The notes: generated from the sequence alone by a model not told the origin. Counted from the first letter of the stretch, positions 15,382-57,997 are shown. The stretch: 64,000 nt of DNA from Dudresnaya verticillata (GCA_977862235.1 OZ374565.1:1-64000); one strand, 5' to 3'. Program-made: numbers and translations.

Positions 15382-15395
15382 CTCACCTCAGTACT

Positions 15396-20041: not shown

Positions 20042-20055
20042 CTCACCTCAGTACT

Positions 20056-23000
20056 CCCTCAGCGATCTGCCGAAATTTTTGTTTCGCGGATATCTCAACA
20101 AGTTCTGCACCGATCTTTTCGGCGGCGGTGCCGCCTGTTCGAGCGCGCGACGGCGCGTCGGTGCGGGGTTTTTCAGCCCTTCACCTTCGCGGGCGGGCGA
20201 GCGCGGTCTACTTTTGTCTCTTTCCGCGCCGCCGATCTGCGCCGCGACGCCGTCGTCGTCGCCGCCGTCGCCGCCGCCGTCGTCGCCGACGGTCACGCGT
20301 TTCCTATTTTGCGCTTACTTTTAAGGTGATCCCTCACCTTGAAATTTGCCCGGGCCCCACTGACTTGTCTTTCTTTCCCTGGCCCTGTACGCGTTTTGCT
20401 TGTACCCGGCACAGCCTAGACTCTGTCTAGGCTGCCGTGGACTGTCGACAGAGGGGTTTCACACCCTTCAACTGACAGATTGGTAAAGGCCAGGCTTGTC
20501 CTGTAAAATCTTCCTTCGGGAAGTGCCGAGAGACCTACAAGTGTGGGAATCGCCAAAGACCCTCGACCTTGAGTGGTAGGCGGCTCGTGACCCACAAGCT
20601 CATCGCAGAAACGTGCCAAGCAACGTCGAAGTTGGGGTAACGTGGCTTAAGCCTGGTGGATCCTGTTTTGAAACCACCCCTTCTAAGATCGAGCGAACGT
20701 CCTGCCAGCGAACCTTCGGGGGAGGCCAAAAATCCTGTGGGCACTCACAGGTAAACGGTGGTTCTGCGACCCCATTGAGAGCTTGTGCAAACGAGAAGTA
20801 CCGCGCGTTACAGGACCGCAGTGAAGAGAGTCTTCTCAGCTGCGGCAGGGAAGGGAACGTCCGATAACTCTGCGCGCACGAACGCTAACACGCGCGCCCT
20901 TTTGCGCGAGCTCGTGCGCAAAGTGCGCGATCTCGCGCCCTACGCTGCGAAGAGGCCCTCATCTCGCAGCAAGGCCACCTGTAGCACCCTCTGGAGGTGT
21001 CCCGAACAGACTGACGACGGACGACAGGCTTGCGTCCCGGTTAGGAGGTCTGTGCCCCGTGGGAACCTACTGTAGAGGACCTTTACAGGTACCTTACCCA
21101 GCGCTGTAACCATGATTGGTCAGCAGCACCCCGACATGCCGAAGGTATGGCTCTCTCCATGCTTTATGCCTTCGGCAAAACACCGCCCGACAAACAGTAC
21201 CAGCTGTCCTCTGGGCTGCCAGTCGTCCTCACTGCCTACTGTAGAAGCGCTACTCATGCACCTGCGGAAGATGCATGTTCCTGGCAGGCGAGGACCACCG
21301 ACGAGGACCGACATCGAGCCTCTCAAGCAGCAGCTCCTGGACTATGGAGTATGGTACTGTGTGACTCACAACAAGTACATGCCCACCCACTGTAGCTCCC
21401 GCATGAACAGTGAAGGCATGTACAGTATGCGGTACAAGAATTACAGCGCATGTCCCGCTACTCGCACTCCGGCGTTCTCCCACGTCCCGTCCAACCAATT
21501 GACGACACCGAGCCGTGAAGAAACTGTAGCCGCGCCATCACAGTCTCCTGCTCTGGACGCGGTCACGGAGACGCAACCCGAGGACGGCGAGCCAGCGGAC
21601 GATATCCTGCCAGCCCCGCGACGAATCCCGGACAGCCAGGAGCCGCCTCCTGCACCGGTACCTGCTACTCGAGAGGTACCAACTGCGCAAACCCCACCCG
21701 TTGCGCGGGGTCCAGGAGGGCAGCTTCTGCCGGCGGTCGAAGACATCTGTCGCTCGCATATCCCTATGGTCACACATATACCGTCTCGCGTCCGCGCCGA
21801 GGTGCGCGACGCACTGTCCAAGACGGTATGGGCTTTTACGAACGCAACCAACTCTCAGGAAGCCACCAAAGAGCTCACTGCATTCCTGCTTTTTCCAGCA
21901 GCCGTCTTGTCCAATCCTCCCGCCGCGAGTGCAAGGGCCAGCGCGTCAACCTCTGCGTCCTCGATCGGCACCTTCCGCGATCGAATCCGACGCTGGGGAC
22001 TCAAGGATTACGACGCCCTATGGCAGGAGGCCTTGAAGGGCTCGACATTCCGTGAGCAGACTGCGCCTTCCGCAGAAGAGCAACGCCGTATCAATGCCTC
22101 ACGAGCCCTTCGCCTTGCAAAGGAGGGCGCCTACAGTAAGGCAGCAGCAGCTCTAGACTCTGATGGAATCGCCCCAGCCACAGACTCTGTGATACAGTCC
22201 ATGAAGGACAAGCACCCGCAGTCCGTACCGCAAACCGACGCGGACCACGAGCTTGACCAGTCCGAACCGCTGCCGACCATGCCTGACTTCGTGCCTTTCA
22301 CAGCCGACGAAGTACGAAAAGCAGTGGCCAAGTTCCCCCGGGCTTCGGCCTCGGGGGGAACAGGACTATCACCGACCCATCTGCAGGAACTGCTCTCAGT
22401 CCCGACCACTCACGAGCACACGGGCCTGCTTGGCGGGCTCACCAAAATGGTCAACGTGCTGGCCAGCGGCGCAGGACCTGCGGAGCTGTCGCCTTGGATT
22501 GCCAGCGCTCCTCTCACGGCTCTGAAGAAGCGCACCGGCGGTGTCCGCCCCATTGCTGTAGGAGAGACAATCCGACGACTCGTGAGCTCTATGCTCATGA
22601 CCAGAGTCGCTCCCAAGGCCAAGGCATACCTCGAACCGCTTCAGCTCGGGGTCGCAACCTCGGGCGGCACAGAAGCCATTGTACACGCGGTCCGGAAGCT
22701 GCAGAATTCTCACGGCCATGACAAGTCCTACGGGTTGCTACAAGTGGACTTGAAGAATGCCTTCAACCTTGTCAGCCGCAAAGCATTCATGAAGGAGGTC
22801 CGCCGACATATGCCTGAACTACTACCGTGGGTCAGATACTGTTATGACTCTGAGGGCCCGCACCTGTGGATGGGTGACACTCTACTGCGGAGTGTCACTG
22901 GTGTACAGCAAGGTGACCCGCTCGGGCCGTTACTGTTTGCTTTGGTGCTGCAGGCACTGATCAAACAGTTGAAGGAACTCACCGCCGACCTGCGGCGCTC

Positions 23001-24701
23001 GGGCCGCAATCAGCAAGCGGAGGGGGCGAACAACTTGCTGCTGTCACTGTTCTACCTGGACGACGGCGTCATCGTGGCGAAACACGCCGTACTCAGGAAG
23101 GTTCTGTCCTTCTTTGACTCCGAGGAAGCTAAGGGCTATGGCTTCCACCTGCGCATGGACAAGTGTACTGTTTGGTGGCCTACTGCACCCGACCCAGAAG
23201 ACTGCGCTGCCTACCCGTCGGATCTTGGGCAGAGCTACGGAGAAGGCACTACAGTACTTCAGGCTCCGATTGGAACGCAGAACTACATGGAGGAGAGCGT
23301 GAATGGCCATGTCGAGTCCATCCAGCCCCTGCTGGACGCAATTTCGGGACTAGAAGACCTACACGTGGCCATCACTCTACTCCGCAACTGTGCCGGAGTC
23401 TGCCGGCTGAACTACCTGCTGCGAGTAGTTCCATCATCCGCCACGGCAAAGGGCGCCGAGCTCTTCGACCAGAAGATTGAGGCTTGCATGCGCAAGCTCG
23501 TGGGAGGAGTCCTACCGAGGGACACCTTCCGCGAACTTCAGCTTCCCCTGCGCACGAAAGAGCCCAGCTTCGGAATCGGTATTTCGGGAGCTGGCGACAT
23601 GAACTCGAGCGCGTTTTTGGCGTCCCTTTCACTGACCCGCAACTTACTGCGTTCTATCTTACCCGCTTCTGTGAACACTGCTCTTTCTGACGATCCTTTT
23701 GCAGTAGAAGCGCACGAAGACTGGAGCGCCAAGTGCCATAGTGAGGATGCTCTGGACCTGGAGAAGATCGACAGCGACGAGTGCCCGCGCCAGCGGGACT
23801 TGACGCGGTTGGTTCTGAAGAAAGTGCAAGCCGAGCTGCCGCTCGGGGACAGGCGGACGCAAGCTTTCCGAGCTTCCCTTGGCGCGCCGGGCGCCAAGGA
23901 CTGGCTCAAGTGCCAGCCGGCACCAGGCATGAAGACGTACATTGCGGATCGGGACTACCGCGTATGGCTTCGATTCTACTGTCGGATTCCACTGCTGGAA
24001 CCCGACACGGAGTGTCCTCGGGCCGGGTGCAAGAAGATGATGGATGTTCACGGCGACCATCTGCTGATTTGTCCGAACGGCATGCGGAACAGCGGATCTC
24101 CTCGGTCGTGGCGCCACGACTCTCAGGTTCGTCTGCTGGCTTCGGATCTGAAACGTGCGACACGCACCCCGATTGTGGAGCCCCGCCCTGTGGGGGCTCA
24201 CCTGGATCGGCCGGACATCAAGGCGCTTGGAACAGAAGGAGGAACGGACTACCTGGACGTCACAATCAGTCATCCACTGTCGTCAGAACAACGCATTCTC
24301 AGCTGCATAACAAACCCGCAAGGGACGCTGAAGAACGCCCACGCTGACAAGGTGCGGACTTACCGTGGCTTCATCCAGGCTGCCGGACCGGGGGCAAGAC
24401 TTGTGCCGGTGCCGATGACCACACTAGGTGGCTGGCACCCGGAGGCGCACAAGTACATGCAAGAGTTGGCGGATACTGTGGCTTCTCGGGCCATGGTAAC
24501 TCGCGGTGTTTCGCGAGCGGCTCTATTCCACAGGCACGCGGCGCGACTGGTGCAGAACAACGTCAAGTGCCTGATGGAAGGGATCCAACAGGAGGTGTAG
24601 ATGTGCAAGTTGTTTTGAGTTGGGGTTTAACTTTGTTGTGATACTACAGTAGATTGTACGTCGACAAATATTAGAATATGATCACCTGTTATAAAGTTGA
24701 A
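20056..24701 (+). mobile_element. RLE non-LTR retrotransposon, copy 5
   Basis: 4660-bp period repeat. Confidence 0.95.
21112..24600 (+). CDS. Retrotransposon RT/RLE polyprotein, 1162 aa
   Basis: Intact ORF, same motifs. Confidence 0.97.
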   Translation: MIGQQHPDMPKVWLSPCFMPSAKHRPTNSTSCPLGCQSSSLPTVEALLMHLRKMHVPGRRGPPTRTDIEPLKQQLLDYGVWYCVTHNKYMPTHCSSRMNSEGMYSMRYKNYSACPATRTPAFSHVPSNQLTTPSREETVAAPSQSPALDAVTETQPEDGEPADDILPAPRRIPDSQEPPPAPVPATREVPTAQTPPVARGPGGQLLPAVEDICRSHIPMVTHIPSRVRAEVRDALSKTVWAFTNATNSQEATKELTAFLLFPAAVLSNPPAASARASASTSASSIGTFRDRIRRWGLKDYDALWQEALKGSTFREQTAPSAEEQRRINASRALRLAKEGAYSKAAAALDSDGIAPATDSVIQSMKDKHPQSVPQTDADHELDQSEPLPTMPDFVPFTADEVRKAVAKFPRASASGGTGLSPTHLQELLSVPTTHEHTGLLGGLTKMVNVLASGAGPAELSPWIASAPLTALKKRTGGVRPIAVGETIRRLVSSMLMTRVAPKAKAYLEPLQLGVATSGGTEAIVHAVRKLQNSHGHDKSYGLLQVDLKNAFNLVSRKAFMKEVRRHMPELLPWVRYCYDSEGPHLWMGDTLLRSVTGVQQGDPLGPLLFALVLQALIKQLKELTADLRRSGRNQQAEGANNLLLSLFYLDDGVIVAKHAVLRKVLSFFDSEEAKGYGFHLRMDKCTVWWPTAPDPEDCAAYPSDLGQSYGEGTTVLQAPIGTQNYMEESVNGHVESIQPLLDAISGLEDLHVAITLLRNCAGVCRLNYLLRVVPSSATAKGAELFDQKIEACMRKLVGGVLPRDTFRELQLPLRTKEPSFGIGISGAGDMNSSAFLASLSLTRNLLRSILPASVNTALSDDPFAVEAHEDWSAKCHSEDALDLEKIDSDECPRQRDLTRLVLKKVQAELPLGDRRTQAFRASLGAPGAKDWLKCQPAPGMKTYIADRDYRVWLRFYCRIPLLEPDTECPRAGCKKMMDVHGDHLLICPNGMRNSGSPRSWRHDSQVRLLASDLKRATRTPIVEPRPVGAHLDRPDIKALGTEGGTDYLDVTISHPLSSEQRILSCITNPQGTLKNAHADKVRTYRGFIQAAGPGARLVPVPMTTLGGWHPEAHKYMQELADTVASRAMVTRGVSRAALFHRHAARLVQNNVKCLMEGIQQEV

Positions 24702-24715
24702 CTCACCTCAGTACT

Positions 24716-27700
24716 CCCTCAGCGATCTGCCGAAATTTTTGTTTCGCGGATATCTCAACAAGTTCTGCACCGATCTTTTCGGCGGCGGTGCCGCCTGTTC
24801 GAGCGCGCGACGGCGCGTCGGTGCGGGGTTTTTCAGCCCTTCACCTTCGCGGGCGGGCGAGCGCGGTCTACTTTTGTCTCTTTCCGCGCCGCCGATCTGC
24901 GCCGCGACGCCGTCGTCGTCGCCGCCGTCGCCGCCGCCGTCGTCGCCGACGGTCACGCGTTTCCTATTTTGCGCTTACTTTTAAGGTGATCCCTCACCTT
25001 GAAATTTGCCCGGGCCCCACTGACTTGTCTTTCTTTCCCTGGCCCTGTACGCGTTTTGCTTGTACCCGGCACAGCCTAGACTCTGTCTAGGCTGCCGTGG
25101 ACTGTCGACAGAGGGGTTTCACACCCTTCAACTGACAGATTGGTAAAGGCCAGGCTTGTCCTGTAAAATCTTCCTTCGGGAAGTGCCGAGAGACCTACAA
25201 GTGTGGGAATCGCCAAAGACCCTCGACCTTGAGTGGTAGGCGGCTCGTGACCCACAAGCTCATCGCAGAAACGTGCCAAGCAACGTCGAAGTTGGGGTAA
25301 CGTGGCTTAAGCCTGGTGGATCCTGTTTTGAAACCACCCCTTCTAAGATCGAGCGAACGTCCTGCCAGCGAACCTTCGGGGGAGGCCAAAAATCCTGTGG
25401 GCACTCACAGGTAAACGGTGGTTCTGCGACCCCATTGAGAGCTTGTGCAAACGAGAAGTACCGCGCGTTACAGGACCGCAGTGAAGAGAGTCTTCTCAGC
25501 TGCGGCAGGGAAGGGAACGTCCGATAACTCTGCGCGCACGAACGCTAACACGCGCGCCCTTTTGCGCGAGCTCGTGCGCAAAGTGCGCGATCTCGCGCCC
25601 TACGCTGCGAAGAGGCCCTCATCTCGCAGCAAGGCCACCTGTAGCACCCTCTGGAGGTGTCCCGAACAGACTGACGACGGACGACAGGCTTGCGTCCCGG
25701 TTAGGAGGTCTGTGCCCCGTGGGAACCTACTGTAGAGGACCTTTACAGGTACCTTACCCAGCGCTGTAACCATGATTGGTCAGCAGCACCCCGACATGCC
25801 GAAGGTATGGCTCTCTCCATGCTTTATGCCTTCGGCAAAACACCGCCCGACAAACAGTACCAGCTGTCCTCTGGGCTGCCAGTCGTCCTCACTGCCTACT
25901 GTAGAAGCGCTACTCATGCACCTGCGGAAGATGCATGTTCCTGGCAGGCGAGGACCACCGACGAGGACCGACATCGAGCCTCTCAAGCAGCAGCTCCTGG
26001 ACTATGGAGTATGGTACTGTGTGACTCACAACAAGTACATGCCCACCCACTGTAGCTCCCGCATGAACAGTGAAGGCATGTACAGTATGCGGTACAAGAA
26101 TTACAGCGCATGTCCCGCTACTCGCACTCCGGCGTTCTCCCACGTCCCGTCCAACCAATTGACGACACCGAGCCGTGAAGAAACTGTAGCCGCGCCATCA
26201 CAGTCTCCTGCTCTGGACGCGGTCACGGAGACGCAACCCGAGGACGGCGAGCCAGCGGACGATATCCTGCCAGCCCCGCGACGAATCCCGGACAGCCAGG
26301 AGCCGCCTCCTGCACCGGTACCTGCTACTCGAGAGGTACCAACTGCGCAAACCCCACCCGTTGCGCGGGGTCCAGGAGGGCAGCTTCTGCCGGCGGTCGA
26401 AGACATCTGTCGCTCGCATATCCCTATGGTCACACATATACCGTCTCGCGTCCGCGCCGAGGTGCGCGACGCACTGTCCAAGACGGTATGGGCTTTTACG
26501 AACGCAACCAACTCTCAGGAAGCCACCAAAGAGCTCACTGCATTCCTGCTTTTTCCAGCAGCCGTCTTGTCCAATCCTCCCGCCGCGAGTGCAAGGGCCA
26601 GCGCGTCAACCTCTGCGTCCTCGATCGGCACCTTCCGCGATCGAATCCGACGCTGGGGACTCAAGGATTACGACGCCCTATGGCAGGAGGCCTTGAAGGG
26701 CTCGACATTCCGTGAGCAGACTGCGCCTTCCGCAGAAGAGCAACGCCGTATCAATGCCTCACGAGCCCTTCGCCTTGCAAAGGAGGGCGCCTACAGTAAG
26801 GCAGCAGCAGCTCTAGACTCTGATGGAATCGCCCCAGCCACAGACTCTGTGATACAGTCCATGAAGGACAAGCACCCGCAGTCCGTACCGCAAACCGACG
26901 CGGACCACGAGCTTGACCAGTCCGAACCGCTGCCGACCATGCCTGACTTCGTGCCTTTCACAGCCGACGAAGTACGAAAAGCAGTGGCCAAGTTCCCCCG
27001 GGCTTCGGCCTCGGGGGGAACAGGACTATCACCGACCCATCTGCAGGAACTGCTCTCAGTCCCGACCACTCACGAGCACACGGGCCTGCTTGGCGGGCTC
27101 ACCAAAATGGTCAACGTGCTGGCCAGCGGCGCAGGACCTGCGGAGCTGTCGCCTTGGATTGCCAGCGCTCCTCTCACGGCTCTGAAGAAGCGCACCGGCG
27201 GTGTCCGCCCCATTGCTGTAGGAGAGACAATCCGACGACTCGTGAGCTCTATGCTCATGACCAGAGTCGCTCCCAAGGCCAAGGCATACCTCGAACCGCT
27301 TCAGCTCGGGGTCGCAACCTCGGGCGGCACAGAAGCCATTGTACACGCGGTCCGGAAGCTGCAGAATTCTCACGGCCATGACAAGTCCTACGGGTTGCTA
27401 CAAGTGGACTTGAAGAATGCCTTCAACCTTGTCAGCCGCAAAGCATTCATGAAGGAGGTCCGCCGACATATGCCTGAACTACTACCGTGGGTCAGATACT
27501 GTTATGACTCTGAGGGCCCGCACCTGTGGATGGGTGACACTCTACTGCGGAGTGTCACTGGTGTACAGCAAGGTGACCCGCTCGGGCCGTTACTGTTTGC
27601 TTTGGTGCTGCAGGCACTGATCAAACAGTTGAAGGAACTCACCGCCGACCTGCGGCGCTCGGGCCGCAATCAGCAAGCGGAGGGGGCGAACAACTTGCTG

Positions 27701-29361
27701 CTGTCACTGTTCTACCTGGACGACGGCGTCATCGTGGCGAAACACGCCGTACTCAGGAAGGTTCTGTCCTTCTTTGACTCCGAGGAAGCTAAGGGCTATG
27801 GCTTCCACCTGCGCATGGACAAGTGTACTGTTTGGTGGCCTACTGCACCCGACCCAGAAGACTGCGCTGCCTACCCGTCGGATCTTGGGCAGAGCTACGG
27901 AGAAGGCACTACAGTACTTCAGGCTCCGATTGGAACGCAGAACTACATGGAGGAGAGCGTGAATGGCCATGTCGAGTCCATCCAGCCCCTGCTGGACGCA
28001 ATTTCGGGACTAGAAGACCTACACGTGGCCATCACTCTACTCCGCAACTGTGCCGGAGTCTGCCGGCTGAACTACCTGCTGCGAGTAGTTCCATCATCCG
28101 CCACGGCAAAGGGCGCCGAGCTCTTCGACCAGAAGATTGAGGCTTGCATGCGCAAGCTCGTGGGAGGAGTCCTACCGAGGGACACCTTCCGCGAACTTCA
28201 GCTTCCCCTGCGCACGAAAGAGCCCAGCTTCGGAATCGGTATTTCGGGAGCTGGCGACATGAACTCGAGCGCGTTTTTGGCGTCCCTTTCACTGACCCGC
28301 AACTTACTGCGTTCTATCTTACCCGCTTCTGTGAACACTGCTCTTTCTGACGATCCTTTTGCAGTAGAAGCGCACGAAGACTGGAGCGCCAAGTGCCATA
28401 GTGAGGATGCTCTGGACCTGGAGAAGATCGACAGCGACGAGTGCCCGCGCCAGCGGGACTTGACGCGGTTGGTTCTGAAGAAAGTGCAAGCCGAGCTGCC
28501 GCTCGGGGACAGGCGGACGCAAGCTTTCCGAGCTTCCCTTGGCGCGCCGGGCGCCAAGGACTGGCTCAAGTGCCAGCCGGCACCAGGCATGAAGACGTAC
28601 ATTGCGGATCGGGACTACCGCGTATGGCTTCGATTCTACTGTCGGATTCCACTGCTGGAACCCGACACGGAGTGTCCTCGGGCCGGGTGCAAGAAGATGA
28701 TGGATGTTCACGGCGACCATCTGCTGATTTGTCCGAACGGCATGCGGAACAGCGGATCTCCTCGGTCGTGGCGCCACGACTCTCAGGTTCGTCTGCTGGC
28801 TTCGGATCTGAAACGTGCGACACGCACCCCGATTGTGGAGCCCCGCCCTGTGGGGGCTCACCTGGATCGGCCGGACATCAAGGCGCTTGGAACAGAAGGA
28901 GGAACGGACTACCTGGACGTCACAATCAGTCATCCACTGTCGTCAGAACAACGCATTCTCAGCTGCATAACAAACCCGCAAGGGACGCTGAAGAACGCCC
29001 ACGCTGACAAGGTGCGGACTTACCGTGGCTTCATCCAGGCTGCCGGACCGGGGGCAAGACTTGTGCCGGTGCCGATGACCACACTAGGTGGCTGGCACCC
29101 GGAGGCGCACAAGTACATGCAAGAGTTGGCGGATACTGTGGCTTCTCGGGCCATGGTAACTCGCGGTGTTTCGCGAGCGGCTCTATTCCACAGGCACGCG
29201 GCGCGACTGGTGCAGAACAACGTCAAGTGCCTGATGGAAGGGATCCAACAGGAGGTGTAGATGTGCAAGTTGTTTTGAGTTGGGGTTTAACTTTGTTGTG
29301 ATACTACAGTAGATTGTACGTCGACAAATATTAGAATATGATCACCTGTTATAAAGTTGAA
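24716..29361 (+). mobile_element. RLE non-LTR retrotransposon, copy 6
   Basis: 4660-bp period repeat. Confidence 0.95.
25772..29260 (+). CDS. Retrotransposon RT/RLE polyprotein, 1162 aa
   Basis: Intact ORF, same motifs. Confidence 0.97.
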   Translation: MIGQQHPDMPKVWLSPCFMPSAKHRPTNSTSCPLGCQSSSLPTVEALLMHLRKMHVPGRRGPPTRTDIEPLKQQLLDYGVWYCVTHNKYMPTHCSSRMNSEGMYSMRYKNYSACPATRTPAFSHVPSNQLTTPSREETVAAPSQSPALDAVTETQPEDGEPADDILPAPRRIPDSQEPPPAPVPATREVPTAQTPPVARGPGGQLLPAVEDICRSHIPMVTHIPSRVRAEVRDALSKTVWAFTNATNSQEATKELTAFLLFPAAVLSNPPAASARASASTSASSIGTFRDRIRRWGLKDYDALWQEALKGSTFREQTAPSAEEQRRINASRALRLAKEGAYSKAAAALDSDGIAPATDSVIQSMKDKHPQSVPQTDADHELDQSEPLPTMPDFVPFTADEVRKAVAKFPRASASGGTGLSPTHLQELLSVPTTHEHTGLLGGLTKMVNVLASGAGPAELSPWIASAPLTALKKRTGGVRPIAVGETIRRLVSSMLMTRVAPKAKAYLEPLQLGVATSGGTEAIVHAVRKLQNSHGHDKSYGLLQVDLKNAFNLVSRKAFMKEVRRHMPELLPWVRYCYDSEGPHLWMGDTLLRSVTGVQQGDPLGPLLFALVLQALIKQLKELTADLRRSGRNQQAEGANNLLLSLFYLDDGVIVAKHAVLRKVLSFFDSEEAKGYGFHLRMDKCTVWWPTAPDPEDCAAYPSDLGQSYGEGTTVLQAPIGTQNYMEESVNGHVESIQPLLDAISGLEDLHVAITLLRNCAGVCRLNYLLRVVPSSATAKGAELFDQKIEACMRKLVGGVLPRDTFRELQLPLRTKEPSFGIGISGAGDMNSSAFLASLSLTRNLLRSILPASVNTALSDDPFAVEAHEDWSAKCHSEDALDLEKIDSDECPRQRDLTRLVLKKVQAELPLGDRRTQAFRASLGAPGAKDWLKCQPAPGMKTYIADRDYRVWLRFYCRIPLLEPDTECPRAGCKKMMDVHGDHLLICPNGMRNSGSPRSWRHDSQVRLLASDLKRATRTPIVEPRPVGAHLDRPDIKALGTEGGTDYLDVTISHPLSSEQRILSCITNPQGTLKNAHADKVRTYRGFIQAAGPGARLVPVPMTTLGGWHPEAHKYMQELADTVASRAMVTRGVSRAALFHRHAARLVQNNVKCLMEGIQQEV

Positions 29362-29375
29362 CTCACCTCAGTACT

Positions 29376-32300
29376 CCCTCAGCGATCTGCCGAAATTTTT
29401 GTTTCGCGGATATCTCAACAAGTTCTGCACCGATCTTTTCGGCGGCGGTGCCGCCTGTTCGAGCGCGCGACGGCGCGTCGGTGCGGGGTTTTTCAGCCCT
29501 TCACCTTCGCGGGCGGGCGAGCGCGGTCTACTTTTGTCTCTTTCCGCGCCGCCGATCTGCGCCGCGACGCCGTCGTCGTCGCCGCCGTCGCCGCCGCCGT
29601 CGTCGCCGACGGTCACGCGTTTCCTATTTTGCGCTTACTTTTAAGGTGATCCCTCACCTTGAAATTTGCCCGGGCCCCACTGACTTGTCTTTCTTTCCCT
29701 GGCCCTGTACGCGTTTTGCTTGTACCCGGCACAGCCTAGACTCTGTCTAGGCTGCCGTGGACTGTCGACAGAGGGGTTTCACACCCTTCAACTGACAGAT
29801 TGGTAAAGGCCAGGCTTGTCCTGTAAAATCTTCCTTCGGGAAGTGCCGAGAGACCTACAAGTGTGGGAATCGCCAAAGACCCTCGACCTTGAGTGGTAGG
29901 CGGCTCGTGACCCACAAGCTCATCGCAGAAACGTGCCAAGCAACGTCGAAGTTGGGGTAACGTGGCTTAAGCCTGGTGGATCCTGTTTTGAAACCACCCC
30001 TTCTAAGATCGAGCGAACGTCCTGCCAGCGAACCTTCGGGGGAGGCCAAAAATCCTGTGGGCACTCACAGGTAAACGGTGGTTCTGCGACCCCATTGAGA
30101 GCTTGTGCAAACGAGAAGTACCGCGCGTTACAGGACCGCAGTGAAGAGAGTCTTCTCAGCTGCGGCAGGGAAGGGAACGTCCGATAACTCTGCGCGCACG
30201 AACGCTAACACGCGCGCCCTTTTGCGCGAGCTCGTGCGCAAAGTGCGCGATCTCGCGCCCTACGCTGCGAAGAGGCCCTCATCTCGCAGCAAGGCCACCT
30301 GTAGCACCCTCTGGAGGTGTCCCGAACAGACTGACGACGGACGACAGGCTTGCGTCCCGGTTAGGAGGTCTGTGCCCCGTGGGAACCTACTGTAGAGGAC
30401 CTTTACAGGTACCTTACCCAGCGCTGTAACCATGATTGGTCAGCAGCACCCCGACATGCCGAAGGTATGGCTCTCTCCATGCTTTATGCCTTCGGCAAAA
30501 CACCGCCCGACAAACAGTACCAGCTGTCCTCTGGGCTGCCAGTCGTCCTCACTGCCTACTGTAGAAGCGCTACTCATGCACCTGCGGAAGATGCATGTTC
30601 CTGGCAGGCGAGGACCACCGACGAGGACCGACATCGAGCCTCTCAAGCAGCAGCTCCTGGACTATGGAGTATGGTACTGTGTGACTCACAACAAGTACAT
30701 GCCCACCCACTGTAGCTCCCGCATGAACAGTGAAGGCATGTACAGTATGCGGTACAAGAATTACAGCGCATGTCCCGCTACTCGCACTCCGGCGTTCTCC
30801 CACGTCCCGTCCAACCAATTGACGACACCGAGCCGTGAAGAAACTGTAGCCGCGCCATCACAGTCTCCTGCTCTGGACGCGGTCACGGAGACGCAACCCG
30901 AGGACGGCGAGCCAGCGGACGATATCCTGCCAGCCCCGCGACGAATCCCGGACAGCCAGGAGCCGCCTCCTGCACCGGTACCTGCTACTCGAGAGGTACC
31001 AACTGCGCAAACCCCACCCGTTGCGCGGGGTCCAGGAGGGCAGCTTCTGCCGGCGGTCGAAGACATCTGTCGCTCGCATATCCCTATGGTCACACATATA
31101 CCGTCTCGCGTCCGCGCCGAGGTGCGCGACGCACTGTCCAAGACGGTATGGGCTTTTACGAACGCAACCAACTCTCAGGAAGCCACCAAAGAGCTCACTG
31201 CATTCCTGCTTTTTCCAGCAGCCGTCTTGTCCAATCCTCCCGCCGCGAGTGCAAGGGCCAGCGCGTCAACCTCTGCGTCCTCGATCGGCACCTTCCGCGA
31301 TCGAATCCGACGCTGGGGACTCAAGGATTACGACGCCCTATGGCAGGAGGCCTTGAAGGGCTCGACATTCCGTGAGCAGACTGCGCCTTCCGCAGAAGAG
31401 CAACGCCGTATCAATGCCTCACGAGCCCTTCGCCTTGCAAAGGAGGGCGCCTACAGTAAGGCAGCAGCAGCTCTAGACTCTGATGGAATCGCCCCAGCCA
31501 CAGACTCTGTGATACAGTCCATGAAGGACAAGCACCCGCAGTCCGTACCGCAAACCGACGCGGACCACGAGCTTGACCAGTCCGAACCGCTGCCGACCAT
31601 GCCTGACTTCGTGCCTTTCACAGCCGACGAAGTACGAAAAGCAGTGGCCAAGTTCCCCCGGGCTTCGGCCTCGGGGGGAACAGGACTATCACCGACCCAT
31701 CTGCAGGAACTGCTCTCAGTCCCGACCACTCACGAGCACACGGGCCTGCTTGGCGGGCTCACCAAAATGGTCAACGTGCTGGCCAGCGGCGCAGGACCTG
31801 CGGAGCTGTCGCCTTGGATTGCCAGCGCTCCTCTCACGGCTCTGAAGAAGCGCACCGGCGGTGTCCGCCCCATTGCTGTAGGAGAGACAATCCGACGACT
31901 CGTGAGCTCTATGCTCATGACCAGAGTCGCTCCCAAGGCCAAGGCATACCTCGAACCGCTTCAGCTCGGGGTCGCAACCTCGGGCGGCACAGAAGCCATT
32001 GTACACGCGGTCCGGAAGCTGCAGAATTCTCACGGCCATGACAAGTCCTACGGGTTGCTACAAGTGGACTTGAAGAATGCCTTCAACCTTGTCAGCCGCA
32101 AAGCATTCATGAAGGAGGTCCGCCGACATATGCCTGAACTACTACCGTGGGTCAGATACTGTTATGACTCTGAGGGCCCGCACCTGTGGATGGGTGACAC
32201 TCTACTGCGGAGTGTCACTGGTGTACAGCAAGGTGACCCGCTCGGGCCGTTACTGTTTGCTTTGGTGCTGCAGGCACTGATCAAACAGTTGAAGGAACTC

Positions 32301-34021
32301 ACCGCCGACCTGCGGCGCTCGGGCCGCAATCAGCAAGCGGAGGGGGCGAACAACTTGCTGCTGTCACTGTTCTACCTGGACGACGGCGTCATCGTGGCGA
32401 AACACGCCGTACTCAGGAAGGTTCTGTCCTTCTTTGACTCCGAGGAAGCTAAGGGCTATGGCTTCCACCTGCGCATGGACAAGTGTACTGTTTGGTGGCC
32501 TACTGCACCCGACCCAGAAGACTGCGCTGCCTACCCGTCGGATCTTGGGCAGAGCTACGGAGAAGGCACTACAGTACTTCAGGCTCCGATTGGAACGCAG
32601 AACTACATGGAGGAGAGCGTGAATGGCCATGTCGAGTCCATCCAGCCCCTGCTGGACGCAATTTCGGGACTAGAAGACCTACACGTGGCCATCACTCTAC
32701 TCCGCAACTGTGCCGGAGTCTGCCGGCTGAACTACCTGCTGCGAGTAGTTCCATCATCCGCCACGGCAAAGGGCGCCGAGCTCTTCGACCAGAAGATTGA
32801 GGCTTGCATGCGCAAGCTCGTGGGAGGAGTCCTACCGAGGGACACCTTCCGCGAACTTCAGCTTCCCCTGCGCACGAAAGAGCCCAGCTTCGGAATCGGT
32901 ATTTCGGGAGCTGGCGACATGAACTCGAGCGCGTTTTTGGCGTCCCTTTCACTGACCCGCAACTTACTGCGTTCTATCTTACCCGCTTCTGTGAACACTG
33001 CTCTTTCTGACGATCCTTTTGCAGTAGAAGCGCACGAAGACTGGAGCGCCAAGTGCCATAGTGAGGATGCCCTGGACCTGGAGAAGATCGACAGCGACGA
33101 GTGCCCGCGCCAGCGGGACTTGACGCGGTTGGTTCTGAAGAAAGTGCAAGCCGAGCTGCCGCTCGGGGACAGGCGGACGCAAGCTTTCCGAGCTTCCCTT
33201 GGCGTGCCGGGCGCCAAGGACTGGCTCAAGTGCCAGCCGGCACCAGGCATGAAGACGTACATTGCGGATCGGGACTACCGCGTATGGCTTCGATTCTACT
33301 GTCGGATTCCACTGCTGGAACCCGACACGGAGTGTCCTCGGGCCGGGTGCAAGAAGATGATGGATGTTCACGGCGACCATCTGCTGATTTGTCCGAACGG
33401 CATGCGGAACAGCGGATCTCCTCGGTCGTGGCGCCACGACTCTCAGGTTCGTCTGCTGGCTTCGGATCTGAAACGTGCGACACGCACCCCGATTGTGGAG
33501 CCCCGCCCTGTGGGGGCTCACTTGGATCGGCCGGACATCAAGGCGCTTGGAACAGAAGGAGGAACGGACTACCTGGACGTCACAATCAGTCATCCACTGT
33601 CGTCAGAACAACGCATTCTCAGCTGCATAACAAACCCGCAAGGGACGCTGAAGAACGCCCACGCTGACAAGGTGCGGACTTACCGTGGCTTCATCCAGGC
33701 TGCCGGACCGGGGGCAAGGCTTGTGCCGGTGCCGATGACCACACTAGGTGGCTGGCACCCGGAGGCGCACAAGTATATGCAAGAGTTGGCGGATACCGTG
33801 GCTTCTCGGGCCATGGTAACTCGCGGTGTTTCGCGAGCGGCTCTGTTCCACAGGCACGCGGCGCGACTGGTGCAGAACAACGTCAAGTGCCTGATGGAAG
33901 GGATCCAACAGGAGGTGTAGATGTGCAGGTTGTTTTGAGTTGGGGTTTAACTTTGTTGTGATACTACAGTAGATTGTACGTCGACAAATATTAGAATATG
34001 GTCACCTGTTATAAAGTTGAA
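29376..34021 (+). mobile_element. RLE non-LTR retrotransposon, copy 7; 3' end joined directly into a 5S rRNA gene
   Basis: ...ATAAAGTTGAA|CTCACCTCAGTACTAAACCAGCC..., continuing as 5S sequence. Confidence 0.95.
30432..33920 (+). CDS. Retrotransposon RT/RLE polyprotein, 1162 aa
   Basis: Intact ORF, same motifs. Confidence 0.97.
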   Translation: MIGQQHPDMPKVWLSPCFMPSAKHRPTNSTSCPLGCQSSSLPTVEALLMHLRKMHVPGRRGPPTRTDIEPLKQQLLDYGVWYCVTHNKYMPTHCSSRMNSEGMYSMRYKNYSACPATRTPAFSHVPSNQLTTPSREETVAAPSQSPALDAVTETQPEDGEPADDILPAPRRIPDSQEPPPAPVPATREVPTAQTPPVARGPGGQLLPAVEDICRSHIPMVTHIPSRVRAEVRDALSKTVWAFTNATNSQEATKELTAFLLFPAAVLSNPPAASARASASTSASSIGTFRDRIRRWGLKDYDALWQEALKGSTFREQTAPSAEEQRRINASRALRLAKEGAYSKAAAALDSDGIAPATDSVIQSMKDKHPQSVPQTDADHELDQSEPLPTMPDFVPFTADEVRKAVAKFPRASASGGTGLSPTHLQELLSVPTTHEHTGLLGGLTKMVNVLASGAGPAELSPWIASAPLTALKKRTGGVRPIAVGETIRRLVSSMLMTRVAPKAKAYLEPLQLGVATSGGTEAIVHAVRKLQNSHGHDKSYGLLQVDLKNAFNLVSRKAFMKEVRRHMPELLPWVRYCYDSEGPHLWMGDTLLRSVTGVQQGDPLGPLLFALVLQALIKQLKELTADLRRSGRNQQAEGANNLLLSLFYLDDGVIVAKHAVLRKVLSFFDSEEAKGYGFHLRMDKCTVWWPTAPDPEDCAAYPSDLGQSYGEGTTVLQAPIGTQNYMEESVNGHVESIQPLLDAISGLEDLHVAITLLRNCAGVCRLNYLLRVVPSSATAKGAELFDQKIEACMRKLVGGVLPRDTFRELQLPLRTKEPSFGIGISGAGDMNSSAFLASLSLTRNLLRSILPASVNTALSDDPFAVEAHEDWSAKCHSEDALDLEKIDSDECPRQRDLTRLVLKKVQAELPLGDRRTQAFRASLGVPGAKDWLKCQPAPGMKTYIADRDYRVWLRFYCRIPLLEPDTECPRAGCKKMMDVHGDHLLICPNGMRNSGSPRSWRHDSQVRLLASDLKRATRTPIVEPRPVGAHLDRPDIKALGTEGGTDYLDVTISHPLSSEQRILSCITNPQGTLKNAHADKVRTYRGFIQAAGPGARLVPVPMTTLGGWHPEAHKYMQELADTVASRAMVTRGVSRAALFHRHAARLVQNNVKCLMEGIQQEV

Positions 34022-34110
34022 CTCACCTCAGTACTAAACCAGCCTGACGAGACTTATCTTCGCAGTTCGGGATGGGATACGGAGCATGTCTGCGTAGTAT
34101 GGCCGAATGT
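34022..34110 (-). pseudogene. 5S rRNA gene truncated by retrotransposon insertion (nt 1-89 retained)
   Basis: Identical to 35232-35320; nt 90-120 and the terminator are replaced by the element 3' end. Confidence 0.93.
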
Positions 34111-35187: not shown

Positions 35188-35200
35188 AAAAAAATAAAAA
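35188..35200 (-). terminator. Pol III oligo-T terminator of the 5S gene (in each intact unit)
   Basis: TTTTTATTTTTTT on the minus strand directly after the gene 3' end. Confidence 0.88.
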
Positions 35201-35320
35201 ACATTCGGCACTGGCGATTCCAGAGTGATCCCTCACCTCAGTACTAAACCAGCCTGACGAGACTTATCTTCGCAGTTCGGGATGGGATACGGAGCATGTC
35301 TGCGTAGTATGGCCGAATGT
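35201..35320 (-). rRNA. 5S rRNA
   Basis: Minus strand ACATTCGGCCATAC...CCCATCCCGAACTGCGAAGATAAG...TTAGTACTGAGGTGAGGGATCACTCTGGAATC...GCCGAATGT; 120 nt; terminal helix ACATTCGGC/GCCGAATGT; oligo-T follows. Confidence 0.96.
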
Positions 35321-35343
35321 GCTTGCTGTTCCCGCCGTACCCC

Positions 35344-35351
35344 TATTTAAA
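35344..35351 (-). promoter_or_regulatory. TATA-like element at about -24 to -31 of the 5S gene (in each unit)
   Basis: TTTAAATA on the minus strand at the usual upstream position for 5S genes. Confidence 0.6.
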
Positions 35352-36410
35352 TGCGCCATCAACTGCACTCCCCGTCATCGACTAAAGACTCCTGCGTCCA
35401 ATGTCCATCCCACTGTAGTGTACACGTGGAGCATTATAGTAGTGACTCATAACCGTATACCATTTACTCTAAACGCAGGATCCAATATAAATACGGTGAA
35501 CCAGCTCATGGACGTTCTGACCCCTTGGTTCAATGAAACCAGCACCCAATCTAATTTACAGAGCCCCTAGATCCAATCCTATAACGCTTTGACTTCTGTT
35601 GATCCAATCCATCCACCCTTATTGGATCCGAACCTGATGCATTCCGTGATTTATATTACTGCATTGTACTATACTTTCTCATCCTTCCCTTTCCATTTCC
35701 TCATCCTTACTCCTTTCCTTCCCACTCTCTGCACCCCTAAACGCGTTAAAATGACACATCCCTAACACCCCTAAACCCACCCATAACCATACGTGCCCCA
35801 AACCCCGATTTAACCCGCTCAAAAGCTGCCGACGGCCCGTGGGGACGTTTTGCACCATAGAAACGCGCTAAAAAGTCGATTTAGGAGGGTAAGAGCGCTA
35901 CGCAATGCGCAGCAACGAGACGCTTCGATTGAGCTACTGAACAGCGCCCGAGCCCCAGCCGTTCCAAAGTTATGAGCACAAACGTCCAAGCCACCCTCAC
36001 CCCAGCCACCAGACTTGATCCGATTGTGGTGATCCTTGATCCAATCTTCTGGGTACTAAATCTAATCCAATTCTATGTCCCTAAATCCAATTCATCCACC
36101 ACACTGATCCATTCCATCCACCACCATGATTCACTCCATGCACCAACACTAGACCCTTTACCCTCCCAATATCATGCCCCTCGCGTACCAGAGTAACCAA
36201 ACTAACCGTAGACCTAACCCTAAACAACCCCTAGACACCTGCAAACACTCTCAGACTCCCTCCCACTTACAAGAAAAGGGGAAAAGTGCGAGTGAAAAGA
36301 ATACGCTGTACAGAGGCAGTGGGTCGGGGATTCTGCGGGAGAGGTATGCAAGGCAGCAATGTACGCAGAGGGCGGCGGGGAGGAAGGAATGAGGTGCAAA
36401 AAAATAAAAA

Positions 36411-36530
36411 ACATTCGGCACTGGCGATTCCAGAGTGATCCCTCACCTCAGTACTAAACCAGCCTGACGAGACTTATCTTCGCAGTTCGGGATGGGATAC
36501 GGAGCATGTCTGCGTAGTATGGCCGAATGT
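36411..36530 (-). rRNA. 5S rRNA
   Basis: Repeat of 35201-35320. Confidence 0.95.
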
Positions 36531-37620
36531 GCTTGCTGTTCCCGCCGTACCCCTATTTAAATGCGCCATCAACTGCACTCCCCGTCATCGACTAAAGACT
36601 CCTGCGTCCAATGTCCATCCCACTGTAGTGTACACGTGGAGCATTATAGTAGTGACTCATAACCGTATACCATTTACTCTAAACGCAGGATCCAATATAA
36701 ATACGGTGAACCAGCTCATGGACGTTCTGACCCCTTGGTTCAATGAAACCAGCACCCAATCTAATTTACAGAGCCCCTAGATCCAATCCTATAACGCTTT
36801 GACTTCTGTTGATCCAATCCATCCACCCTTATTGGATCCGAACCTGATGCATTCCGTGATTTATATTACTGCATTGTACTATACTTTCTCATCCTTCCCT
36901 TTCCATTTCCTCATCCTTACTCCTTTCCTTCCCACTCTCTGCACCCCTAAACGCGTTAAAATGACACATCCCTAACACCCCTAAACCCACCCATAACCAT
37001 ACGTGCCCCAAACCCCGATTTAACCCGCTCAAAAGCTGCCGACGGCCCGTGGGGACGTTTTGCACCATAGAAACGCGCTAAAAAGTCGATTTAGGAGGGT
37101 AAGAGCGCTACGCAATGCGCAGCAACGAGACGCTTCGATTGAGCTACTGAACAGCGCCCGAGCCCCAGCCGTTCCAAAGTTATGAGCACAAACGTCCAAG
37201 CCACCCTCACCCCAGCCACCAGACTTGATCCGATTGTGGTGATCCTTGATCCAATCTTCTGGGTACTAAATCTAATCCAATTCTATGTCCCTAAATCCAA
37301 TTCATCCACCACACTGATCCATTCCATCCACCACCATGATTCACTCCATGCACCAACACTAGACCCTTTACCCTCCCAATATCATGCCCCTCGCGTACCA
37401 GAGTAACCAAACTAACCGTAGACCTAACCCTAAACAACCCCTAGACACCTGCAAACACTCTCAGACTCCCTCCCACTTACAAGAAAAGGGGAAAAGTGCG
37501 AGTGAAAAGAATACGCTGTACAGAGGCAGTGGGTCGGGGATTCTGCGGGAGAGGTATGCAAGGCAGCAATGTACGCAGAGGGCGGCGGGGAGGAAGGAAT
37601 GAGGTGCAAAAAAATAAAAA

Positions 37621-37740
37621 ACATTCGGCACTGGCGATTCCAGAGTGATCCCTCACCTCAGTACTAAACCAGCCTGACGAGACTTATCTTCGCAGTTCGG
37701 GATGGGATACGGAGCATGTCTGCGTAGTATGGCCGAATGT
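37621..37740 (-). rRNA. 5S rRNA
   Basis: Repeat of 35201-35320. Confidence 0.95.
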
Positions 37741-38830
37741 GCTTGCTGTTCCCGCCGTACCCCTATTTAAATGCGCCATCAACTGCACTCCCCGTCATCG
37801 ACTAAAGACTCCTGCGTCCAATGTCCATCCCACTGTAGTGTACACGTGGAGCATTATAGTAGTGACTCATAACCGTATACCATTTACTCTAAACGCAGGA
37901 TCCAATATAAATACGGTGAACCAGCTCATGGACGTTCTGACCCCTTGGTTCAATGAAACCAGCACCCAATCTAATTTACAGAGCCCCTAGATCCAATCCT
38001 ATAACGCTTTGACTTCTGTTGATCCAATCCATCCACCCTTATTGGATCCGAACCTGATGCATTCCGTGATTTATATTACTGCATTGTACTATACTTTCTC
38101 ATCCTTCCCTTTCCATTTCCTCATCCTTACTCCTTTCCTTCCCACTCTCTGCACCCCTAAACGCGTTAAAATGACACATCCCTAACACCCCTAAACCCAC
38201 CCATAACCATACGTGCCCCAAACCCCGATTTAACCCGCTCAAAAGCTGCCGACGGCCCGTGGGGACGTTTTGCACCATAGAAACGCGCTAAAAAGTCGAT
38301 TTAGGAGGGTAAGAGCGCTACGCAATGCGCAGCAACGAGACGCTTCGATTGAGCTACTGAACAGCGCCCGAGCCCCAGCCGTTCCAAAGTTATGAGCACA
38401 AACGTCCAAGCCACCCTCACCCCAGCCACCAGACTTGATCCGATTGTGGTGATCCTTGATCCAATCTTCTGGGTACTAAATCTAATCCAATTCTATGTCC
38501 CTAAATCCAATTCATCCACCACACTGATCCATTCCATCCACCACCATGATTCACTCCATGCACCAACACTAGACCCTTTACCCTCCCAATATCATGCCCC
38601 TCGCGTACCAGAGTAACCAAACTAACCGTAGACCTAACCCTAAACAACCCCTAGACACCTGCAAACACTCTCAGACTCCCTCCCACTTACAAGAAAAGGG
38701 GAAAAGTGCGAGTGAAAAGAATACGCTGTACAGAGGCAGTGGGTCGGGGATTCTGCGGGAGAGGTATGCAAGGCAGCAATGTACGCAGAGGGCGGCGGGG
38801 AGGAAGGAATGAGGTGCAAAAAAATAAAAA

Positions 38831-38950
38831 ACATTCGGCACTGGCGATTCCAGAGTGATCCCTCACCTCAGTACTAAACCAGCCTGACGAGACTTATCTT
38901 CGCAGTTCGGGATGGGATACGGAGCATGTCTGCGTAGTATGGCCGAATGT
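38831..38950 (-). rRNA. 5S rRNA
   Basis: Repeat of 35201-35320. Confidence 0.95.
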
Positions 38951-40040
38951 GCTTGCTGTTCCCGCCGTACCCCTATTTAAATGCGCCATCAACTGCACTC
39001 CCCGTCATCGACTAAAGACTCCTGCGTCCAATGTCCATCCCACTGTAGTGTACACGTGGAGCATTATAGTAGTGACTCATAACCGTATACCATTTACTCT
39101 AAACGCAGGATCCAATATAAATACGGTGAACCAGCTCATGGACGTTCTGACCCCTTGGTTCAATGAAACCAGCACCCAATCTAATTTACAGAGCCCCTAG
39201 ATCCAATCCTATAACGCTTTGACTTCTGTTGATCCAATCCATCCACCCTTATTGGATCCGAACCTGATGCATTCCGTGATTTATATTACTGCATTGTACT
39301 ATACTTTCTCATCCTTCCCTTTCCATTTCCTCATCCTTACTCCTTTCCTTCCCACTCTCTGCACCCCTAAACGCGTTAAAATGACACATCCCTAACACCC
39401 CTAAACCCACCCATAACCATACGTGCCCCAAACCCCGATTTAACCCGCTCAAAAGCTGCCGACGGCCCGTGGGGACGTTTTGCACCATAGAAACGCGCTA
39501 AAAAGTCGATTTAGGAGGGTAAGAGCGCTACGCAATGCGCAGCAACGAGACGCTTCGATTGAGCTACTGAACAGCGCCCGAGCCCCAGCCGTTCCAAAGT
39601 TATGAGCACAAACGTCCAAGCCACCCTCACCCCAGCCACCAGACTTGATCCGATTGTGGTGATCCTTGATCCAATCTTCTGGGTACTAAATCTAATCCAA
39701 TTCTATGTCCCTAAATCCAATTCATCCACCACACTGATCCATTCCATCCACCACCATGATTCACTCCATGCACCAACACTAGACCCTTTACCCTCCCAAT
39801 ATCATGCCCCTCGCGTACCAGAGTAACCAAACTAACCGTAGACCTAACCCTAAACAACCCCTAGACACCTGCAAACACTCTCAGACTCCCTCCCACTTAC
39901 AAGAAAAGGGGAAAAGTGCGAGTGAAAAGAATACGCTGTACAGAGGCAGTGGGTCGGGGATTCTGCGGGAGAGGTATGCAAGGCAGCAATGTACGCAGAG
40001 GGCGGCGGGGAGGAAGGAATGAGGTGCAAAAAAATAAAAA

Positions 40041-40160
40041 ACATTCGGCACTGGCGATTCCAGAGTGATCCCTCACCTCAGTACTAAACCAGCCTGACGA
40101 GACTTATCTTCGCAGTTCGGGATGGGATACGGAGCATGTCTGCGTAGTATGGCCGAATGT
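40041..40160 (-). rRNA. 5S rRNA
   Basis: Repeat of 35201-35320. Confidence 0.95.
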
Positions 40161-41250
40161 GCTTGCTGTTCCCGCCGTACCCCTATTTAAATGCGCCATC
40201 AACTGCACTCCCCGTCATCGACTAAAGACTCCTGCGTCCAATGTCCATCCCACTGTAGTGTACACGTGGAGCATTATAGTAGTGACTCATAACCGTATAC
40301 CATTTACTCTAAACGCAGGATCCAATATAAATACGGTGAACCAGCTCATGGACGTTCTGACCCCTTGGTTCAATGAAACCAGCACCCAATCTAATTTACA
40401 GAGCCCCTAGATCCAATCCTATAACGCTTTGACTTCTGTTGATCCAATCCATCCACCCTTATTGGATCCGAACCTGATGCATTCCGTGATTTATATTACT
40501 GCATTGTACTATACTTTCTCATCCTTCCCTTTCCATTTCCTCATCCTTACTCCTTTCCTTCCCACTCTCTGCACCCCTAAACGCGTTAAAATGACACATC
40601 CCTAACACCCCTAAACCCACCCATAACCATACGTGCCCCAAACCCCGATTTAACCCGCTCAAAAGCTGCCGACGGCCCGTGGGGACGTTTTGCACCATAG
40701 AAACGCGCTAAAAAGTCGATTTAGGAGGGTAAGAGCGCTACGCAATGCGCAGCAACGAGACGCTTCGATTGAGCTACTGAACAGCGCCCGAGCCCCAGCC
40801 GTTCCAAAGTTATGAGCACAAACGTCCAAGCCACCCTCACCCCAGCCACCAGACTTGATCCGATTGTGGTGATCCTTGATCCAATCTTCTGGGTACTAAA
40901 TCTAATCCAATTCTATGTCCCTAAATCCAATTCATCCACCACACTGATCCATTCCATCCACCACCATGATTCACTCCATGCACCAACACTAGACCCTTTA
41001 CCCTCCCAATATCATGCCCCTCGCGTACCAGAGTAACCAAACTAACCGTAGACCTAACCCTAAACAACCCCTAGACACCTGCAAACACTCTCAGACTCCC
41101 TCCCACTTACAAGAAAAGGGGAAAAGTGCGAGTGAAAAGAATACGCTGTACAGAGGCAGTGGGTCGGGGATTCTGCGGGAGAGGTATGCAAGGCAGCAAT
41201 GTACGCAGAGGGCGGCGGGGAGGAAGGAATGAGGTGCAAAAAAATAAAAA

Positions 41251-41370
41251 ACATTCGGCACTGGCGATTCCAGAGTGATCCCTCACCTCAGTACTAAACC
41301 AGCCTGACGAGACTTATCTTCGCAGTTCGGGATGGGATACGGAGCATGTCTGCGTAGTATGGCCGAATGT
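41251..41370 (-). rRNA. 5S rRNA
   Basis: Repeat of 35201-35320. Confidence 0.95.
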
Positions 41371-42460: not shown

Positions 42461-42580
42461 ACATTCGGCACTGGCGATTCCAGAGTGATCCCTCACCTCA
42501 GTACTAAACCAGCCTGACGAGACTTATCTTCGCAGTTCGGGATGGGATACGGAGCATGTCTGCGTAGTATGGCCGAATGT
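42461..42580 (-). rRNA. 5S rRNA
   Basis: Repeat of 35201-35320. Confidence 0.95.
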
Positions 42581-43670: not shown

Positions 43671-43790
43671 ACATTCGGCACTGGCGATTCCAGAGTGATC
43701 CCTCACCTCAGTACTAAACCAGCCTGACGAGACTTATCTTCGCAGTTCGGGATGGGATACGGAGCATGTCTGCGTAGTATGGCCGAATGT
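43671..43790 (-). rRNA. 5S rRNA
   Basis: Repeat of 35201-35320. Confidence 0.95.
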
Positions 43791-57983: not shown

Positions 57984-57997
57984 CTCACCTCAGTACT

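Follow-up and report, generated by a model that had tools for sequence, protein, structure and literature searches.

The question raised by a stretch of 64,000 nucleotides (nt) from Dudresnaya verticillata (GCA_977862235.1 OZ374565.1:1-64000; hereafter the window) is whether a retrotransposon encoding a restriction-like endonuclease (RLE) can be specific for 5S rRNA genes. The window carries ten head-to-tail copies of such an element, nine of them complete, which flank a subtelomeric 5S array. The element is an intact RLE-type retrotransposon devoid of long terminal repeats (LTRs) and equipped with a zinc finger, a reverse transcriptase (RT), and a CCHC motif plus RLE, and it is a genuine, probably 5S-specific one. 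Its anatomy, its junction sequences, and the match of its 5' untranslated region (UTR) to the 5S promoter boxes were obtained directly from the DNA. We consider it likely that this element, with a single open reading frame (ORF) for RT and RLE, has copies ending at nt 89 of the 5S gene since its endonuclease would cut there and prime reverse transcription, the antisense boxes A and C of its 5' UTR being predicted to bind TFIIIA.

Junctions with the 5S rRNA Gene

Copy 7 ends ...ATAAAGTTGAA and runs directly into a minus-strand 5S gene, from nt 89 down to nt 1. This join, at nt 89/90, lies within both box C and the loop D hairpin. In Xenopus, box C is described as recruiting TFIIIA (PMC8789306). 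All nine complete copies have the 3' end ...AAAGTTGAA followed by CTCACCTC, i.e. 5S sequence from nt 89 downward, which extends for 14 nt in seven of them, for 10 nt in copy 1, and through the full remainder of the gene and the spacer in copy 7. The sequence-only reading had claimed this junction in box C, the same 5S sequence after every complete 3' end, and an element on the plus strand against a 5S gene on the minus strand; all this is borne out by the junctions as read, the Rfam placement of the 5S gene, and the coordinates. The 14-nt piece (nt 76-89) occurs once between copies, as repeated insertion with a 14-bp duplication gives, and here we apply the reasoning used for Dada-U1, whose tandem copies are described as separated by one target duplication (PMC8869645, PMC3706591). 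The 5' side comes in three types: copies 3-8 have it in full, copies 9 and 10 fall short by about 12 nt, at a CT microhomology, and copy 2 has a CCTC join together with 11 nt of the 3' end in repeated form, whereas the 3' side is constant across all three. The 5' end of copy 8 falls in register with the target in the following 5S unit, so that element and 5S array meet at one and the same site on either side, copy 7 forming the other junction; the 68-nt deletion at copy 8 ends 3 nt from the inferred nick. At the other end of the array, the telomere joins copy 1 at CTCACCT, and TCACCT occurs four times per 4660-nt unit, with no sign of over-representation within the element. As a single post hoc case, this join would fit healing by telomerase after a cut in a target that had been rebuilt or was a look-alike, a route that has been proposed for MoTeR (PMC7367193). 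Site-specific insertion at nt 89/90 is well supported inside the window. Three findings go beyond the sequence-only reading, namely a 14-bp duplication of the target, the 5' UTR's promoter copy, and the ending of both telomere and deletion at the target motif. Contigs of three sequencing runs gave a few short near-identical pieces, none covering the junctions.

Copies 4-6 are identical, a single base sets copy 3 apart from them, and copy 7 is mosaic, its 5' part being as in copies 3-6 and its 3' part as in copies 8-9; the nine junctions are therefore not nine independent events. Copies 1, 2, and 7, on the other hand, differ by up to 72 bases, mostly silent. Between copies 1 and 7, 13 codons are changed as against 32 silent ones; the ratio of nonsynonymous to synonymous rates (dN/dS) among the three copies is about 0.14 (range 0.10-0.15; binomial P 1e-10), i.e. 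purifying selection. Since these diverged lineages under protein selection share the same 3' junction, repeated transposition to one site is favored over one accident, as it is by the three types of 5' junction.

A Copy of the 5S Promoter in the 5' UTR

The match to box C comprises seven bases on each side of the insertion site, and a 14-nt match anywhere in 5S arose in only 4 of 1000 shuffles. The box A match stands in exact register, 22 nt from that to box C, whereas identity outside the boxes is at background (9/50, 0/6, 2/10, and 6/25, the 2/10 being nt 73-82). A score for two runs reached 24 as compared with a maximum of 18 in 500 dinucleotide shuffles. Box positions were assigned by analogy to Xenopus (48-100 nt). 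The promoter copy faces against the element ORF and along the direction of the host 5S gene. It keeps boxes at 5S spacing, as elements of the Cassandra, Ajax, and SINE3 type do, and conservation limited to boxes is, in the published account, the pattern read as promoter function in Ajax and Cassandra (PMC10886601). On balance we lean toward the boxes being a TFIIIA site, a prediction from base identity and spacing; transcription from the promoter copy would be less certain, and no Pol III (RNA polymerase III) terminator run lies within 700 nt of it in copies 7 and 9.

The first 330 nt of the 5' UTR fold more stably than shuffles (z -4.2), and no ribozyme or other Rfam family was found in the 5' UTR. 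A short GCC/GTC-rich tandem repeat (29560-29608) lies inside this stably folding region.

The Encoded Protein and Its Relatives

With its single ORF, its lack of LTRs, a fixed 3' end, and a variable 5' end, the element has the features of an RLE-type non-LTR retrotransposon. The N-terminal C2H2 motif is common to the closest relatives, and the C-terminal CCHC and endonuclease motif residues are invariant or nearly so across a 20-sequence alignment. The RT domain has the catalytic YxDD, and its best PDB matches are R2 and L1. The predicted model of the full protein (mean predicted local distance difference test, pLDDT, 81) has R2 as its best match, and that of the C-terminal part (pLDDT 92) matches the endonuclease region of R2Tg (1143-1385) with Z 16.7 and a root-mean-square deviation of 3.1 over 219 aligned residues, the next unrelated fold having Z 7.1. 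All nine complete copies keep the 1162-amino acid (aa) ORF with a single stop, and to this extent the earlier count of nine intact ORFs stands; however, copies 8 and 9 (ORFs 54394-57882 and 59041-62529) carry W952C at a column invariant in the 20-sequence alignment and may be impaired despite their open frame.

The spacing of the core endonuclease residues (X19, X9, X13) fits the CRE/SLACS consensus RHD-X19-33-E-X9-21-R/KPD-X12-14-D/E as printed in PMC12857005. The CCHC residues are present, but three of their four spacers (X4, X9, X3, X13) are slightly above the range printed there for CRE, C-X1-3-C-X7-8-H-X3-4-C-X9-10-RHD. Among 709 homologues from a protein search, 23 have an identity of 36-57%, and an RT tree of 127 of 128 chosen proteins placed the close relatives in an unnamed clade of 27 members (support 1.0). 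As the homologues in this tree include no named CRE member (CRE1, SLACS, CZAR, MoTeR1, or Cnl1), CRE membership is by motif only. The earlier label of a CRE-clade-like RLE element thus holds for the RLE type and the core spacing, and the element may be called CRE-like by its motifs.

Loci of relatives comprised 6 from the close clade and 49 distant ones, the nearest relatives (52-57% identical) lying outside this set. The promoter-box pattern was present in none of the 55, and ARAGORN gave one doubtful tRNA among them, distant from the match. One relative of an Ulp1 subgroup (L004, 1130-1225) is followed by a tRNA-like 3' half with a perfect T-arm including a B box and with a T-run terminator, a stretch that neither ARAGORN nor Rfam called; L001 ends at a 15-nt motif that in L004 precedes the tRNA-like half, and L002 shows nothing of the kind. 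It is possible that L004 would represent a sister family targeting tRNA genes. A 10-nt look-alike of the target behind L023 does not lie inside a 5S gene and was set aside as chance. Three proteins of the same clade (P0006, P0124, and P0128) combine repeated zinc-finger modules at the N terminus with a protease region of the Ulp1 type (Pfam PF02902 on P0006), an arrangement that has otherwise been reported for NeSL/Utopia. Scanning of prokaryotic genomes confirmed none of 93 stretches with the C-terminal query and gave the 49 distant loci, of 23-43% identity, with the full query; these CRE-like loci in prokaryotic genome bins (L007-L055) are likely to be eukaryotic contaminant contigs. Several of them end in poly(A) and then (TA)n. 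No relatives were found among viral contigs in two scans. Celine was dropped as a CRE relative, since the text available of its paper does not call it CRE.

Proposed Mechanism

Cutting, mobility, binding, and transcription are predictions from the sequence, and the following course of events could produce the locus. The enzyme would nick the 5S-sense (minus) strand at nt 89/90, and the element RNA would be copied with the freed 3' end as primer, which would account for the invariant 3' junction. A cut of the other strand about 14 nt further on (nt 75/76) would duplicate nt 76-89, and the 5' end would be joined with variable trimming at microhomologies of 2-6 nt. The duplication would rebuild the site, allowing later copies to stack head to tail, with unequal exchange or conversion multiplying and mixing them. 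Where a cut led to no insertion, another kind of repair would likely have taken over: a 68-nt deletion with filler in one case and telomere addition in another. The box A/box C copy would likely restore the TFIIIA-type site split by the insertion and may act as a chromatin or regulatory element, possibly driving antisense Pol III RNA.

A bolder version, which we regard as unlikely in its entirety, would have a CRE-like element that destroys the 5S promoter and replaces it. Its own boxes, altered beside the cut to escape the endonuclease, would recruit TFIIIA and drive antisense Pol III RNA ending at the host terminator, and its cuts would sever chromosomes, the 3' end intended for the RT being used by telomerase instead. 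The wider clade would switch between Pol III gene targets, 5S here and possibly tRNA in L004.

Alternative Explanations

Several points weigh against insertion directed to 5S genes as set out above. The evidence for site specificity comes from one 64-kb window rather than from flanks across the genome, more than 14 nt of 5S follow the 3' end in copy 7 only, and an intact upstream flank (nt 90-121) is missing from every insertion in the window. At the telomere join, the C is possibly telomeric, and the two-run statistic of the promoter copy was picked after the match had been seen. None of the ten internal box C copies carries an insertion, which, together with the loss of nt 73-82, would fit escape from the element's own cut. 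Near the relatives, 5S sequence was found by nhmmer at none of the 55 loci and by Rfam at none of the 26 scanned (0/6 close-clade, 0/20 of the 49 distant), and only three of the six close-clade loci (L001, L002, and L004) extend beyond the ORF end; because these loci are without 5S, 5S targeting would not be a clade-wide trait on the evidence of the 55. Site-specific insertion into 5S, as first claimed, stands inside the window, where 3' and 5' junctions fall at the same site and the 14-nt piece, the three 5' types, and purifying selection concur, but has no counterpart among these relatives. Recombination, moreover, accounts for part of the array, and junction types 1 and 3 could each be later microhomology deletions of type 2. 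One chance insertion in 5S might thus have been followed by recombination between the 14-bp repeats or between copies, which built the arrays, and by small deletions, which changed the junctions, the element not being strictly 5S-specific; identical copies 4-6 and mosaic copy 7, the lack of 5S in relatives' loci, and the array growth by break-induced replication that is documented, in the account available, for MoTeR would all agree with such a course. We judge it improbable, however, given that purifying selection acts between diverged copies sharing the 3' junction, that all junction changes remove 5' sequence of the element while none affects its 3' end, and that the 5' UTR contains box A in register together with sequence from both sides of the target, more than a single chance insertion can provide.

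A second possibility keeps the 5S specificity and reinterprets the 14 nt as a 3' tail of the element RNA, read through into the target and annealing to the cut target, with a nick at or near nt 75/76 and no true staggered duplication. The final sequence is identical under both models, and the 3' junctions are precise, with no added bases; yet the piece is only 10 nt in copy 1 and 8 nt in the short repeat, and both the join to the telomere and the deletion of 68 nt (at its right end) fall on nt 89/90 or no more than 3 nt away from it rather than at 75/76. Folding also gives no sign of a tail in the 3' UTR structure, specific pairing of the 3' UTR with the target tail having been rejected when 386 out of 3000 random tails, and 1071 out of 3000 shuffled ones, folded as well, and we hold this model to be quite improbable. 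A telomere-targeting element like MoTeR, FoTeR, or Cnl1, with a secondary link to 5S, would explain why the array starts at the telomere with 5' ends toward the chromosome end, as in MoTeR and FoTeR. It is hardly credible here, as telomeric repeats follow none of the nine 3' ends, whereas all FoTeR 3' ends are described as followed by 3-7 telomere repeats, and the 5S array separates copies 8-10 from the chromosome end, which is 53 kb away. For the 5' UTR boxes alone, a different origin deserves more weight, although we tend to disfavor it: they may lack a function and be left over from a captured 5S gene or SINE3, may serve pairing at the RNA level with the target strand or 5S rRNA, or may bind the element's own protein instead of TFIIIA. 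No TATA-like box lies upstream of the promoter copy although the host gene has one, a box A change is present in 5 of 10 copies (copies 3-7), both of which also count against promoter function, and the box C copy is centered on the cut site and forms a perfect palindrome. Against this, identity is confined to the promoter boxes with background between them, the pattern from which promoter function was inferred in the description of Ajax; nt 73-82, beside the cut and within the duplication, have not been retained (2/10); folding of the antisense strand does not resemble that of 5S (z -0.7); and the box C copy is locked in a hairpin in the sense RNA.

Layout of the Window

The window runs from the telomere through seven copies (1534-34021), the interrupted 5S gene, and 15 intact 5S genes to three further copies (Table 1). 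Rfam found 15 full 5S genes with a period of 1210 and the truncated one at 34022-34110; its matches in the window were to 5S only, and no R2-type insertion in 28S rDNA was present.

Table 1. Features of the window and of its full-length copy 7
Feature	Position	Strand	Source
Telomeric repeat (CCCCTAAA)n, joined to 5'-truncated copy 1 at CTCACCT	1..1533	.	
Copy 1, lacking ~125 nt of 5' end; ORF 2464-5952	1534..6053	+	
Junction type 1: 10 nt target, 11-nt repeat of element 3' end, 8 nt target	6054..6082	+	
Copies 2-6 in tandem, 14-nt target piece between them (junction type 2)	6083..29361	+	
14-nt 5S piece (nt 76-89) preceding copy 7, read as target-site duplication	29362..29375	-	
Full-length copy 7 of the element (4646 nt), without poly(A) tail	29376..34021	+	
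5' UTR, 1056 nt	29376..30431	+	
5S box C copy (nt 83-96), 14/14, centered on insertion site, in hairpin/palindrome; 10/10 copies	29646..29659	-	
5S intermediate element position (nt 67-72), 4/6 identical	29670..29675	-	
5S box A copy (nt 51-60), exact 5S spacing; 10/10 in copies 1, 2, 8, 9, 10, 9/10 in copies 3-7	29682..29691	-	
Single ORF, 1162 aa (P0001)	30432..33920	+	
N-terminal C2H2-type zinc-finger motif, aa 32-55	30525..30596	+	Read by eye, no Pfam match
Reverse transcriptase, aa 472-688, E 1.4e-16, YLDD at 648	31845..32495	+	Pfam RVT_1
CCHC knuckle and restriction-like endonuclease: C968-C987, RHD 1001, E1023, RPD 1033, D1049, K1080	33333..33671	+	
3' UTR, 101 nt	33921..34021	+	
Interrupted 5S gene, nt 1-89	34022..34110	-	
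15 intact 5S genes, identical 1210-bp units	35200..52260	-	Rfam
Copy 8 5' junction with 5S array: 68 nt repeat replaced by 10-nt filler, then 11 nt target piece	53317..53337	+	
Copies 8 and 9, start of copy 10	53338..64000	+	
Junction type 3 (14 nt target; element 5' end ~12 nt shorter)	57984 and 62631	+	

The telomere unit is the 8-mer CCCCTAAA, with 139 exact units and 38 with an extra A (around window 1510-1560), and less than 35 kb separate the chromosome end from the 5S array. Motifs resembling the telomere repeat (CCCCTAAAC, CCCTAAA) occur several times in the 5S spacer (window 35734-36226), and their strand is that of the telomere itself. A 204-aa antisense ORF and a 165-aa junction ORF have the appearance of by-products.

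Significance and Comparison with Known Systems

Site-specific RLE retrotransposons supply the enzymes adapted for RNA-based gene insertion, nearly all of them from R2. If 5S-directed insertion is true, the D. verticillata element would add an intact single-protein member with a base-precise site in the 5S gene, which is conserved and multicopy, and with a predicted cut staggered by 14 nt, and thereby a new target class. Its promoter copy raises the question of how elements of this kind are regulated within Pol III gene arrays and how they come to be tolerated there; the join to the telomere suggests an enzyme able to determine the position of a chromosome end. The literature compared, which excludes Repbase and Fell et al. 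2025, contained no RLE element located in 5S genes. Fell et al. 2025 reportedly includes a family with a 5S preference. Its survey used animal genomes, according to what a review says of it.

Mutsu of zebrafish is a non-LTR retrotransposon of the apurinic/apyrimidinic endonuclease (APE)/Tx1 type. In the portion available of a 2024 review of links between rDNA and transposable elements, it is the only defined 5S-specific LINE (long interspersed element). Mutsu resembles the present element in occupying fixed sites in 5S rRNA genes (PMC5340908) but, as described there, has two ORFs and a site about 20 nt from the 5S 5' end, whereas the D. verticillata element has one ORF and an RLE and sits at nt 89/90 in antisense. 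Dada-5S also targets 5S; however, Dada is described as a DNA transposon (PMC8869645, PMC3706591). Dada-U6 is reported to have a short copy of its target gene near its own ends, similar to the promoter copy here. The combination of an RLE element in 5S box C with its own antisense 5S promoter copy was not found described, and the descriptions of Mutsu and Dada-5S set it apart from both. Cassandra, Ajax, and SINE3 are mobile elements that likewise keep only boxes A, IE (intermediate element), and C of 5S (PMC10886601, PMC10946416); according to these accounts they are short and non-autonomous and their boxes make their own RNA, whereas here the boxes (minus) oppose the ORF (plus) of a 4.6-kb autonomous element that inserts into box C. 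Utopia (PMC4640811), as portrayed there, shares the targeting of small RNA genes, fixed 3' and variable 5' junctions, a duplication (20 bp in reptile Utopia), and occasional tandem insertion, but its target is U2.

R2 (9dou, 9nl3, 8gh6; PMC13580325) is the best structural match for both the whole protein and the endonuclease region and, in the text available, is alike in the chemistry inferred here, target-primed reverse transcription; it differs in being only 16-20% identical and in targeting 28S rDNA. The CRE group (CRE1/CRE2, SLACS, CZAR, MoTeR1, FoTeR, and Cnl1) is, as portrayed in PMC12857005 and PMC7367193, alike in its one ORF of about 1150-1180 aa with an N-terminal C2H2 finger, an RT, and a CCHC-RHD-E-RPD-D endonuclease, as well as in site-specific insertion into a repeated target and in tandem arrays, the terminal truncated copy of MoTeR being telomere-capped. 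The targets of this group are, in these descriptions, spliced-leader genes (CRE1/CRE2, SLACS, CZAR) or telomeres (MoTeR1, FoTeR, Cnl1), whereas the D. verticillata element occupies 5S box C and carries a copy of the 5S promoter.

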